Positions 6,074-10,839 of a DNA stretch of 64,000 bases are shown in pieces. The notes below the pieces were generated by a model. That model did no database searches. It was not told the origin of the DNA and saw nothing but the letters and a program-made list of their open reading frames with translations. The stretch is taken from NCBI RefSeq assembly GCF_044324875.1, contig NZ_CP172185.1; one strand, 5' to 3'. Within the stretch, counting starts at the first letter, position 1. The number at the start of each line of letters is the position of its first letter. This DNA comes from Escherichia coli (GTDB lineage Bacteria; Pseudomonadota; Gammaproteobacteria; Enterobacterales; Enterobacteriaceae). Made by a program: the position numbers and the translations under genes.

Positions 6074-7285
6074 TCACCCCACTTCTGGTAACAAGCCTGC
6101 TGCAATCAAAAATTGCACGCTAATCACAGCAATACCACAGAGAAACACCACCACCAGCGCCGGACGACCACCTTTCACCCGGTAACCCGCCTGAGGATTG
6201 TGCTTTCTGCTTTGCCAGGTCAACAGCGAAGGGATAATCAATGCCAGTAGCGCCAGCGCCACACCGGCGTAACCCAGCGCCATCACAAATCCTCGTGGAT
6301 AAAACAGTGCAAACGCCAACGGCGGCAGAAAGGTAATTGCACCAGTTTGCAATCGTCCACCAACGGTATTTGAACGCTGAAACAAATCTGCCAGATAATC
6401 AAATAAACCTAACGCAACGCCGAGAAATGACGTGGCGAGGGCTAAATCAGCAAATAAATGCACCGCCAGCTCAACATGCGGAGAGGCCACCATTTCGCGT
6501 AACGCCTGTAACAGCCCGTTTAATCCGGCATGATTAGCCAGCAATCCCATAAAGGTTGTTGAATCAATGCTGCCAAGCGTCGCCACCTGCCAGAAAATAT
6601 ATGCCACCAGGGGGATCGCACTACCGATTATAAACACCCAGCGTAGCTTACGAATGTTGCCATCCATATAGCTGACAATACTCGGCACGCTACCGTGAAA
6701 ACCAAACGATGTAAAAATCACCGGGATTGCAGATAGTGCCAGCCCCTGTTGCAACGGCAGGGTTAAAAGATTCACCTTGTGAATATGCGGAAGCAGCAGT
6801 ACCAGCATCACCACCAGAAAAATAATTTTGGCGCTGAACAGAAAACGGTTAAATAAATCGACCAGCGAAGTTCCGACACAAACCACGCCACCGGCAACAA
6901 AAGTGAACAACAGCACGCCAGCGGTTGCCGACATTGAAATACCTGTCCAGTCGCTGATGCTGGAGGCCAACAATTCACCAGCCCCGCTGATGTATGCCGC
7001 AGTCAGAGCATACATTAAGAACATCATACTGAAGCCCGTCAGCCACTGACCGTAGCGTCCCAGATAGCGTTTTGCCAGCGTGCCCAGACCGGTATCTGCC
7101 GGGACATGCTGGTACACCTCCAGCAGTAATAGCGCCGTGTAGCACATCAACGCCCAAAGCCCAATCAACAAGATTAACGTGACGCTAAAACCAACACCTG
7201 CCGCAGCCAGCGGCATTGCCAGCATGCCTGCGCCAATTGTGGTTCCCGCCACGATAAAAACACTTCCCAGAGTTCTGTTTTTCAC
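6074..7285 (-). CDS. tyrP: TyrP, tyrosine-specific transporter
   Basis: 403 aa polytopic membrane protein [30 protein letters not shown]...; aromatic amino acid permease family. Confidence 0.95.
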
Positions 7286-7376
7286 GCTTTCTTCTGTCCT
7301 GACGATCTTTATGAGTGATATCTGCGGCGCAGGTTAAGGCATAACGGCTGCTTCGTCAAACCGGCGTTACATATGG

Positions 7377-7394
7377 TGTAAATATAAATGTACA
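7377..7394. promoter_or_regulatory. TyrR box (TGTAAA-N6-TGTACA) in the tyrP promoter region
   Basis: tgtaaatataaatgtaca matches TyrR box consensus TGTAAA-N6-TTTACA; about 90 bp upstream of tyrP start. Confidence 0.7.
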
Positions 7395-7476
7395 ATAAAA
7401 TGCGTTCAGTCCTGCGCTGGCGCAAAGTCTTGGTAAGCGGCAATCGCTACGCTAGGCTTTTTTTTGAGGAGGAACG

Positions 7477-7716
7477 ATGGACTCTATTCACGGTCATGAA
7501 GTGTTAAATATGATGATTGAATCAGGCGAGCAATATACGCATGCCAGTCTGGAAGCTGCGATTAAAGCGCGTTTTGGTGAACAGGCACGTTTTCACACCT
7601 GCTCGGCAGAAGGGATGACAGCGGGAGAGCTGGTGGCGTTTCTGGCAGCAAAAGGCAAATTTATACCTTCGGAAGAAGGTTTTTCGACCGATCAGAGTAA
7701 GATTTGCCGTCACTGA
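7477..7716 (+). CDS. yecH: YecH, small DUF2492 protein
   Basis: 79-aa ORF MDSIHGHEVLNMMIESGEQYTHASLEAAIKARFGEQARFHTCSAEGM... Confidence 0.85.
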   Translation: MDSIHGHEVLNMMIESGEQYTHASLEAAIKARFGEQARFHTCSAEGMTAGELVAFLAAKGKFIPSEEGFSTDQSKICRH

Positions 7717-7753
7717 TTTGAAACGGCGGCAGTAAACCTGCCGCCGGAGAACA

Positions 7754-8251
7754 TTAGTTTTGAGTGTCGAGGGTAGAGAGTTCTTTGTCGATAAAATACA
7801 AACCTTCGCCGCTTTTGCCTGCAAGACTTAATTTATCAATAATCGATTTGAACAGTTTCTCTTCTTCATGCTGCTCAGAAACATACCATTGCAGGAAATT
7901 AAATGTTGGGTAGTCCTGATTGGTCATTGCAGCATGAGCCAGTTCGTTAATTTTCTGCGTGATTAATTGTTCGTGTTTATAGGTTTCCTGGAATAATTCA
8001 TCAAGTGAGGAATATTCAGCAAACGGAGATTCAACGGTATTAATACGCGGTAAGTTGCCGGTATCAGTCAGATAATCAAACAGACGCTGCATATGCGTCA
8101 TCTCTTCCTGGGCGTGACGGCGCAGGAACGCGGCAGCACCTTCGAAGGTATGATAGCTGCACCAGGCGCTCATTTGCTGATAAAGCAGTGAAGAGTACAG
8201 TTCCAGGTTCATCTGCTCATTAAGTTTTTCAATCATTTCTGGTTTCAGCAT
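7754..8251 (-). CDS. ftnA: FtnA, ferritin (iron storage)
   Basis: 165 aa from [30 protein letters not shown]...; ferritin ferroxidase residues; ORF track extends 5 codons upstream (MWSTI) but the known start is MLKPEM. Confidence 0.93.
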
Positions 8252-8422
8252 GATAGTGCTCCACAAAGGTTATATTTGTTGCTGTGGCGTCACTATAATT
8301 TGTTATTTTATTATTTGCAAAAGGTAAAATATAAACTTCATTTATTAAAAATACGAATGGGAATAAAACGCATTACCGCTATTTATTTAATCAGCGAAGA
8401 TCCCCCTCGCTGATTAAAACAT

Positions 8423-8746
8423 TTAGAGAAAGACAGGGAAGGCGGAATGATGGCACTGATATGACAAAGTGAATTCCGTATTCAAACATAAGGAATCCGC
8501 AAAAAGGCTACAGTTGCCTACTGGCTGACCAAAGGGGATAGCGTGGGTATAGCCTTCCTGTTGGCATGCGCGATCGGCGATCCCGCGACTGACATAACGA
8601 TCGGTATGGGCATGCTGCAAAAAAGCCTGGTCATAAACCAACCGTACAATACCTGTTGCCGCGTCAACTTCGCTCACATGGGCCTGGCGAGTAACCGTAC
8701 ACCCCGCCAGCGTTATTAATGAAAGAGTCAGAATCAGAAGTCTCAT
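8423..8746 (-). CDS. yecR: YecR, putative lipoprotein (flagellar regulon member)
   Basis: 107 aa; N-terminal lipoprotein signal MRLLILTLSLITLAGC. Confidence 0.85.
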   Translation of the reverse strand: MRLLILTLSLITLAGCTVTRQAHVSEVDAATGIVRLVYDQAFLQHAHTDRYVSRGIADRACQQEGYTHAIPFGQPVGNCSLFADSLCLNTEFTLSYQCHHSAFPVFL

Positions 8747-8910
8747 GGTCCAGCCAGAAGAGTAAGAGAAAGCACTATTTTACGTGTTACAGCGCTGCGA
8801 CAATGGCCGAAAAAGACGCCTGGCAGGCGCTATTTCTTGCCATCTGTAGGTGTCAGAAATGGGGGGGCTGCTTTTTGATTATCATTTTTATAACATTAAA
8901 GGGGTATTTA

Positions 8911-8926
8911 TGTGATTTACATCACA
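8911..8926. promoter_or_regulatory. CRP-binding site (TGTGA-N6-TCACA) upstream of azuC
   Basis: tgtgatttacatcaca is a perfect match to the CRP core consensus; about 80 bp upstream of azuC ATG. Confidence 0.7.
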
Positions 8927-9008
8927 TAAAGATTGATTTTTGTGATGGTTGTCATATTATAAGCGCAAAGACAATAACACCTGTATAACAAATGGTCGGA
9001 GTGCCGCG

Positions 9009-9095
9009 ATGAAACTGCGCAAAATCCTGAAAAGTATGTTCAATAACTATTGCAAGACGTTCAAAGACGTACCGCCAGGCAATATGTTCCGATAA
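9009..9095 (+). CDS. azuC: AzuC, 28-aa small membrane-associated protein
   Basis: Manual translation: MKLRKILKSMFNNYCKTFKDVPPGNMFR*; not in ORF track (too short); followed by intrinsic terminator (cctgctccggcaggtttttttgt, about 9099-9125). Confidence 0.8.
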   Translation: MKLRKILKSMFNNYCKTFKDVPPGNMFR

Positions 9096-9209
9096 CAAAA
9101 AACCTGCTCCGGCAGGTTTTTTTGTGTCCTGATGACGGTGGATGTGACTATCGCTGAAGATGTGAAGCCGCTACTATAACGGCTTTCAAAATGCTATCAG
9201 GAGTTTACG

Positions 9210-9461
9210 ATGTCCCAGCCGCTGAATGCCGATCAGGAACTGGTTTCTGATGTGGTTGCTTGCCAGTTGGTTATCAAACAAATTCTCGACGTTCTGGATG
9301 TAATCGCGCCCGTTGAAGTTCGCGAAAAAATGTCCAGCCAGCTGAAGAATATCGACTTTACTCACCATCCCGCCGCCGCAGACCCGGTCACCATGCGGGC
9401 AATCCAAAAAGCCATCGCGCTGATTGAACTCAAGTTTACCCCACAGGGCGAATCCCATTAA
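9210..9461 (+). CDS. yecJ: YecJ, DUF2766 protein
   Basis: 83-aa [30 protein letters not shown]... Confidence 0.85.
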
Positions 9462-9539
9462 AAAACCGCTGCTTCAAAAAGATGAGGCAGCGGTTTCTCA
9501 AAAACGTCATCGGCGCAATTGCATTAGCGCCGATGACGA

Positions 9540-10043
9540 TCAATGCAGCTGATGCGACACGACATTCAGAACATGTTGGTCGGTCTGCACAGGGCACATA
9601 CCAGCAAGTTTCGCACTGCGCACTTCATCAAGAATGGTTTGCAGCAACAGGCCATCATGCTGCTGTTCTTTTTCCAGATCGCGCAGGAAATTGACGGTTG
9701 AATCATCATTCAGTTCTTTCGCTTCATCGGCTAACTGTGCCAACGTACTAGAACGTTGCTCGTATTCTTCCATCGTTTTTTGGAAAAGTTCTTCCAGTGA
9801 GTTCAGTTTTTCACCGGGAACATCAATGGCTTTAACGATGGGAGTAGCGCCGACACTCTTCATAAAGTTAAACATGCGCATCATTTGGGTCACGTTACTC
9901 TGTGCCTGGGCGCGAAGGAAAGTGGCGGTGCCGTTCAGACTCTGTTCAGAACACCAGTTACTCAGGTGAAGGTAGAGATTGGATGCGTAAAACTCGCGGT
10001 TCATTTGAGAGTTGAGTTTGAGAAGCATTCCAGCGGTTGCCAT
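9540..10043 (-). CDS. ftnB: FtnB, ferritin-like protein
   Basis: 167 aa [30 protein letters not shown]...; ferritin-like fold, paralog of ftnA. Confidence 0.92.
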
Positions 10044-10839
10044 ACCTAATATCCTTATATCCAGAAGTGGAGAGGTGCAAGATAAATCAAAACACCATAA
10101 TTACTGTTTGCAGAATAATTCCTTTCTGCCGGTCCGAAATGTGATCGTGGAGTCAATTCTGACGATGATCTGAAATAAGAATAACGTCTGAACGGGTATA
10201 AGAAAATGCTTAAATCATCAAGTTTATATATTTTTACATTTCATTGATGAAATCAATGTAACTGCAATGAATTTTAATGATAGTGCTTTTTGTATCTTGT
10301 TGATATTAATCGATGAATTTGAATTCATGATGAAGTGATGATTTTATAAAACGTTTTTTCATTTTTGCGAGATGGCTCTCATTATACGTGTTCTGTTAAT
10401 TAATGAGCACAGTGATAATTAATGGCGAAATGAATGACGCGCATTTTCCACATCTTTGAGTTGTGGTTATTACACCCTTTCAAAAACTCAACGCCAGGTA
10501 ATGCGGCCTGTTGACTGGTTAAAAAGAAGACATCCCGCATGGGTACCAAAGACAACAAGGATTTCCAGGCTAATCTTATGGATTAATCTGCTGTGCACTA
10601 GACAATTTGTCAGACAAATTGGCTTTCCCTTATGTCTTTTCCCGCTAAATTTATGCACGTTCTCACTGTAATTCTGCGATGTGATATTGCTCTCCTATGG
10701 AGAATTAATTTCTCGCTAAAACTATGTCAACACAGTCACTTATCTTTTAGTTAAAAGGTAATGCTTTGTTTTCCGATTAATTTAACGAATGTCATTCGTT
10801 TTTGCCCTACACAAAACGACACTAAAGCTGGAGAGAACC

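Follow-up and report, generated by a model that had tools for sequence, protein, structure and literature searches.

The DNA at 8911..9125 of the window (by which we mean the whole 64,000-nucleotide stretch of Escherichia coli DNA analysed, contig NZ_CP172185.1) is the known E. coli azuC/AzuCR locus, and the feature itself holds nothing new; we are highly confident that it is azuCR, a CRP-repressed, FnrS-controlled dual-function RNA that codes for the small protein AzuC. Our own results concern sequence identity, the anatomy of the locus, its pattern of conservation and its predicted duplexes; the binding of GlpD, the repression of targets and the repression exerted by CRP and by FnrS are taken from the literature, and two-site occlusion by CRP is a mechanism that we infer. 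The features of the locus and its neighbours, in window coordinates, are as follows.

8423..8746, minus strand: yecR, the upstream neighbour
8911..8926, strand not assigned: distal perfect CRP site, TGTGATTTACATCACA, from a pattern search; centre at -48.5
8933..8938, plus strand: -35 hexamer TTGATT, from a promoter scan; no variation among the 6 genera or lineages aligned
8941..8956, strand not assigned: proximal imperfect CRP-like site, TGTGATGGTTGTCATA, with 1 mismatch to the pattern; centre at -18.5
8955..8960, plus strand: -10 hexamer TATTAT, from a promoter scan; ends 6 bases before the mapped start
8967, plus strand: AzuCR transcription start, K-12 position 1988001 (PMC8915982) mapped via identical DNA; 42 nt before the ATG
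8967..9125, plus strand: AzuCR transcript (azuR, formerly IS092/IsrB), mapped from K-12 b4434 with no mismatch
8978..8984, plus strand: FnrS pairing site CACCTGT, from complementarity; 25-31 nt upstream of the ORF
8999..9002, plus strand: Shine-Dalgarno sequence GGAG, read from the sequence; 6 nt before the ATG
9009..9095, plus strand: azuC coding sequence, 28 aa and stop, from translation, NCBIfam NF033642 and identity to K-12 b4663
9051..9080, plus strand: predicted cadA-pairing seed (AzuCR nt 85-114, codons 15-24), from the best local duplex
9096..9125, plus strand: intrinsic terminator, consisting of an A-run, stem CCTGC (9103-9107), loop TCCG, stem GCAGG (9112-9116) and T-run (9117-9123)
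9210..9461, plus strand: yecJ, the downstream neighbour

Read directly from the window sequence, 9009..9095 on the plus strand translates as MKLRKILKSMFNNYCKTFKDVPPGNMFR followed by a TAA stop, exactly the 28-residue product that a preliminary description of this DNA had placed there. The coding DNA does not differ at any position from K-12 b4663 (reference AzuC YP_002791245.1 / WP_010723106.1), and the translation matches the NCBIfam equivalog NF033642 (stress_AzuC; cut-off 30 bits) with 75.9 bits and E = 1.3e-21, its residues 2-27 aligning to profile positions 1-26 of 26. The comparison with the published AzuC sequence that the preliminary description had proposed therefore upholds its identification of the protein, as does the RefSeq annotation of azuC ('stress response protein AzuC', WP_010723106.1); no evidence contradicts the AzuC identity. 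In K-12 MG1655 the same DNA carries two annotations, the CDS azuC b4663 ('small regulatory membrane protein AzuC') and the ncRNA azuR b4434 ('small regulatory RNA AzuR', 1987843..1988001, minus strand).

The window runs in the orientation opposite to K-12 coordinates, and between 8872 and 9140 it departs from K-12 at just two bases, both in the spacer of the perfect CRP site (TTTACA in the window, TTTGTA in K-12) and neither of them a contacted base; two more differences lie further upstream, and from the -35 hexamer to past the terminator there is no mismatch. K-12 AzuCR (b4663/b4434) and the window thus share the protein, the RNA from its start to its 3' end, the -35 and -10 hexamers, the FnrS site, the terminator, the same two CRP sites and the same neighbours, yecR and yecJ. 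A 601-base query around the locus found a match in 5,419 of 5,426 complete E. coli genomes, the listed records showing yecR, azuC and yecJ, and a 231-base core query found one in 5,418 of the 5,426. Among individual genomes, E. coli TW10690 has an IS5 transposase that splits yecH (L001, 445..1413) and E. coli SCU-306 has a yecJ annotated as a frameshifted pseudogene (L007, 457..527); azuC is intact in both.

The preliminary description had called the gene 'unannotatable-by-length', which does not agree with the databases: azuC is annotated in all 40 rows sampled evenly down the ranking of the 231-base core matches, and curated family models for AzuC exist in both NCBIfam (NF033642) and Pfam (PF28150). 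Its related contention that ORF-length cut-offs hide the gene stands for the ORF lister, whose default cut-off of 60 aa misses azuC, and falls for reference annotation, which routinely includes it. Even with the cut-off lowered to 20 aa the lister returned only a 48-aa ORF with a TTG start (8949..9095) that encloses azuC. Because this TTG, at 8949, lies upstream of the transcription start at 8967, it cannot be the azuC start codon. A GGAG or GGGG is kept ahead of the ATG in all aligned genera.

The locus has its own promoter and its own terminator, in agreement with the preliminary description of a self-contained unit between yecR and yecJ, and the span given there, 8911..9125, coincides exactly with the stretch bounded by the perfect CRP site and the 3' end annotated for azuR. 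The hexamers found by the promoter scan are separated by 16 nt, a spacing that fits a start at 8967, and the -10 hexamer is invariant in every aligned sequence. The annotated transcript is 159 nt long, 5 nt apart from the 164 nt given in PMC8915982. At its 3' end the predicted fold of 9094..9125 (A-tract, CCUGC-UCCG-GCAGG, U7) has a free energy of -15.2 kcal/mol (z = -4.3) and none of 200 shuffles was as stable, which confirms the intrinsic terminator that had been described downstream of azuC; the U7 run (9117..9123) follows directly after the G+C-rich hairpin, with the annotated azuR end at 9125. The loop differs among the five genera compared, in all of which stem and T-run are unchanged. 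A consensus terminator scanner made no call at the azuC terminator, where direct folding found the hairpin; pairing of the A-run with the U-run, which makes the stem longer, is the probable cause.

Its flanks, one an A-run and the other a T-run, make the azuC terminator look bidirectional. A search of 7000..11000 against Rfam at a permissive E-value returned no family at threshold, only the sub-threshold terminator look-alikes STnc370 and rsmX. The former, a Salmonella sRNA candidate, was placed at 9091..9155 on the minus strand (33.4 bits against a gathering threshold of 54, E = 0.065); we rejected it as the identity of a minus-strand feature, the match being below threshold and resting almost wholly on the azuC terminator hairpin in reverse, and a search of the literature on STnc370 turned up nothing of relevance. 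On the other side of the locus, just downstream of yecR, a hairpin at 8816..8830 (GCGCCTGCCAGGCG(T)) drew a terminator call on both strands and is probably the yecR terminator. A TACTAT sequence at 9172..9177, which precedes the yecJ start by about 35 nt, is kept in all genera viewed, including those lacking azuC, and is likely the -10 box of a promoter belonging to yecJ itself.

AzuC carries a net charge of +6, and its residues 2-19 fit an amphipathic helix lying on the membrane surface, with a hydrophobic moment of 0.60 compared with 0.26 +/- 0.13 in shuffled sequences, 0.8% of which reach 0.60. The protein has been described as amphipathic and membrane-associated, and as co-purifying with GlpD, whose dehydrogenase activity it raises (PMC8915982). 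Within E. coli it is preserved while the DNA drifts: even the copies with the most diverged DNA (96-98% identity) encode a protein identical to WP_010723106.1, and the coding changes seen in the species are all synonymous (AAA to AAG at Lys5, CCA to CCG at Pro23).

Homologues beyond the species were sought in two ways. A degenerate DNA pattern for residues 19-27, scanned over the contigs of one genome per species, matched E. albertii, E. whittamii, Escherichia sp. E1V33, two further 'E. coli' species representatives and a Pluralibacter MAG; a match in a Methylocystaceae MAG was dismissed as chance. Because the pattern fixed residues 19-27, it returned only Escherichia and the one Pluralibacter MAG besides that chance hit, and owing to this bias a second sample was drawn by synteny, through YecJ homologues, with the following outcome.

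Enterobacter hormaechei: azuC present directly upstream of yecJ, 27 aa, PF28150 match
Kluyvera: azuC present directly upstream of yecJ, 29 aa, PF28150 match
Kosakonia: azuC present directly upstream of yecJ, 27 aa, PF28150 match
Pluralibacter: azuC present directly upstream of yecJ, 28 aa
Salmonella (L020): no azuC found upstream of yecJ in the genome sampled
Citrobacter (L021): no azuC found upstream of yecJ in the genome sampled
Cedecea (L026): no azuC found upstream of yecJ in the genome sampled

In at least five genera (Escherichia, Enterobacter, Kluyvera, Kosakonia and Pluralibacter), then, azuC precedes yecJ in the same orientation, and its patchy distribution suggests loss in some lineages. 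The PF28150:AzuC assignments in Enterobacter, Kluyvera and Kosakonia are precomputed matches; in these three genera codon 28 is a stop and the proteins have 27 or 29 residues. Variable sites fall on first, second and third codon positions in the ratio 3:1:15 for Escherichia and Pluralibacter, and 5:6:17 for the synteny-sampled alignment of six lineages from five genera, a pattern indicating that the protein is under purifying selection and ruling out a fortuitous ORF.

The same transcript acts as an RNA. AzuCR was first predicted as an sRNA gene, IS092/IsrB, and has since been found to bind Hfq and ProQ and to repress targets in vivo; it represses cadA and galE by direct base pairing, for which compensatory mutations provide the proof, through a pairing region that lies inside the coding sequence and pairs near the cadA ribosome-binding site, and because of that location translation and base pairing interfere with each other (PMC8915982). 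In our scan of AzuCR against K-12 cadA (-100..+60, in 30 x 30 nt windows, full-length RNAduplex having given meaningless end-to-end duplexes), the best predicted duplex, at -26.9 kcal/mol, joined AzuCR nt 85-114 to cadA -16..+14, a stretch that takes in both the start codon and the ribosome-binding site. Of 100 dinucleotide-shuffled versions of AzuCR, none did as well (mean -20.1, sd 2.5), with a narrow margin of 0.2 kcal/mol over the best shuffle, at -26.7. For galE there was no single site; three rival duplexes of -27.6 to -28.9 kcal/mol fell at different galE positions. Codons of the cadA-pairing stretch show no excess of synonymous conservation, with third positions varying in 7 of 10 compared with 9 of 13 in codons 2-14, so that in this small sample the RNA function leaves no detectable extra footprint, and folding of the whole transcript was unremarkable (z = -0.98).

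Translation of azuC is subject to control by another RNA. FnrS pairs 25-31 nt upstream of the ORF for AzuC and represses its translation (PMC8915982), and at exactly this distance the window has CACCUGU (8978..8984), complementary to GCAGGUG at the FnrS 5' end with a predicted duplex of -11.5 kcal/mol. CACCTG is kept in five of the six aligned lineages, the exception being E. albertii, which has CAGATAT (L013, ~9256..9262) where the others carry CACCTG(Y/A); FnrS control of AzuC may consequently have been lost there.

The promoter carries two sites related to the CRP pattern. Perfect matches to TGTGA-N6-TCACA number two in the 64-kb window, compared with 0.10 expected, and none of 100 shuffles reaches two. 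One is the distal site of azuC, which agrees with the extended CRP consensus at 16 of 22 positions; the other, TGTGATCTGCATCACA at 17718..17733, falls in sequence that matching E. coli records annotate as flhD, and presumably corresponds to the CRP activator site known from the flhDC promoter. Allowing up to one mismatch gives only three sites in the window, two of which sit 30 bp, or three helical turns, apart at the azuC promoter. The second of these, the proximal site, occupies the promoter spacer and the first two bases of the -10 hexamer. The half-sites of the distal site are invariant and its 6-base spacer is variable among 8 E. coli strains and 6 Escherichia lineages, the spacer showing four variants among the divergent E. 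coli copies, in which the half-sites never vary. Across genera, Escherichia, Enterobacter and Kosakonia retain the distal site well, and in Pluralibacter and Kluyvera it is degenerate. The proximal half-sites TGTGA and GTCATA are invariant in all five of these genera, with variation in the alignment of six lineages limited to the central spacer and one flanking base, and the imperfect proximal site is thus better conserved across genera than the perfect distal one.

CRP usually activates from centres at -41.5, -61.5 and -71.5. The azuC sites, at -48.5 and -18.5, are off these positions; this, and the location of the proximal site within the core promoter, suggests that RNA polymerase is occluded. 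Work on azuC and CRP was reportedly presented by Hemm et al. in 2010. PMC8915982 and the review PMC12612679 describe CRP as repressing azuCR transcription, with AzuC-SPA and AzuCR RNA highest in glucose and AzuC-SPA raised in a crp deletion mutant, and the legend to Fig. 1 of PMC8915982 speaks of predicted CRP binding 'sites', in the plural, which would correspond to 8911..8926 and 8941..8956. The preliminary description was right about the perfect site, gave it no role and overlooked the second, CRP-like site. Repression by CRP may thus work through occlusion at both sites, possibly by two cooperating dimers; we found no dissection of such two-dimer occlusion at azuCR in the accessible literature. 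A more specific version, which we put forward tentatively and consider rather less probable than its alternatives, follows from the invariance of the proximal half-sites across five genera: the proximal site would carry CRP repression, and the perfect site would be a later, Escherichia-specific addition that brings in a second dimer and tightens repression cooperatively.

Four other accounts of the locus bear on this assignment, two of them concerning what the transcript does. The preliminary description treated the locus as a small-protein transcription unit; AzuC is indeed encoded, and what that description lacked is that the transcript is also the dual-function RNA AzuCR (azuR b4434, PMC8915982). 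That the transcript is nonetheless plain AzuC mRNA without RNA function is very unlikely. Such an mRNA would show the strong coding signal that we see (NF033642, codon-position variation), no extra nucleotide conservation in the proposed pairing region, no Rfam family and unremarkable whole-RNA folding, but for K-12 it has already been refuted by the published compensatory-mutation experiments, in which stop-codon mutants still repress cadA-gfp and galE-gfp and compensatory mutations restore regulation (PMC8915982); the annotation of azuR as an ncRNA in K-12 and the 30-nt duplex predicted over the cadA ribosome-binding site, better than 100 of 100 shuffles, also speak against it. The converse account, the original IS092/IsrB call of a non-coding sRNA whose 28-codon ORF is fortuitous, has practically no probability left. 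It has in its favour the first prediction of the locus as an sRNA gene (PMC8915982), an sRNA-like size and a Rho-independent terminator, and against it the concentration of variable sites at third codon positions (15 of 19 and 17 of 28), an identical protein in E. coli copies differing by 2-4% in DNA, a recognisable protein of 27-29 aa kept in five genera, and GGAG 6 nt before the ATG. Detection of the SPA-tagged protein and ribosome profiling, the experiments that the preliminary description had suggested, are already published, as PMC8915982 cites, and with the conservation pattern they refute a purely non-coding role.

The remaining two accounts concern regulation and independence of the unit. 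With its perfect consensus core immediately ahead of a weak -35 hexamer, the distal site invites the default assumption that it is a class I or class II activator site, turning azuC on when glucose is absent, and the layout does superficially resemble CRP-dependent promoters. Activation is nevertheless exceedingly unlikely here: neither centre falls at -41.5, -61.5 or -71.5, the core promoter encloses the second site, and the published measurements (PMC8915982, PMC12612679) have AzuC-SPA and AzuCR RNA at their highest in glucose and AzuC-SPA going up when crp is deleted. Alternatively, azuC could be a leader peptide or attenuator of yecJ and not an independent gene, given that wherever we found it, in five genera, it stands directly upstream of yecJ on the same strand and combines a short ORF with a terminator. 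We give this scarcely any credence, since the terminator is strong and has no evident anti-terminator pairing, the TACTAT box some 35 nt before yecJ is kept in Salmonella and Citrobacter, which lack azuC, a discrete RNA of ~160 nt has been published (PMC8915982), and AzuC has a protein partner of its own, GlpD (PMC8915982).

The preferred reading of azuCR as a dual-function RNA can be cast as a working model. Transcription of an independent sigma-70 unit would proceed from the -35 at 8933 and the -10 at 8955, start at 8967 and end at the terminator near 9125, yielding one transcript of ~160 nt with two functions, as mRNA for AzuC and as the regulatory RNA AzuR. As mRNA it would direct synthesis of the 28-residue cationic amphipathic AzuC, which would stimulate GlpD; as AzuR, a stretch inside the coding sequence, predicted for cadA at ~9051..9080, would pair with the cadA and galE mRNAs and lower their expression. 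As the two functions overlap, translation and base pairing would compete. When glucose is absent cAMP-CRP would repress transcription, in our reading by binding at -48.5 and -18.5 and so excluding RNA polymerase, and under anaerobiosis the sRNA FnrS would pair with CACCUGU at 8978..8984 and repress translation.

Several known systems are comparable in function and unrelated in sequence. SgrS/SgrT of E. coli, like AzuCR, combines in a short RNA a small protein with pairing to sugar-metabolism mRNAs; SgrS has distinct regions for coding and for pairing, with both products acting in the same pathway, whereas in AzuCR the regions overlap and compete and the products act in partly different pathways (PMC8915982). 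Spot 42/SpfP of E. coli and VcdRP of Vibrio cholerae are likewise CRP-repressed dual-function RNAs in carbon metabolism. Their arrangement of coding and pairing regions is another, and their targets differ from those of AzuCR, SpfP acting on CRP itself and VcdP on citrate synthase.

The Storz laboratory's azuC/AzuCR is a textbook case of a small protein encoded by a dual-function RNA, and AzuC serves here as a calibration case, a real 28-codon gene that can be recognised from raw sequence; the warning about ORF-length cut-offs is valid for naive ORF calling and not for current reference annotation. The comparative data contribute small refinements only, namely the spread of azuC-yecJ synteny and the deeper conservation of the proximal CRP-like site. 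If the proximal site is indeed the primary site of repression, this would be a modest refinement of the mechanics of the azuCR promoter.
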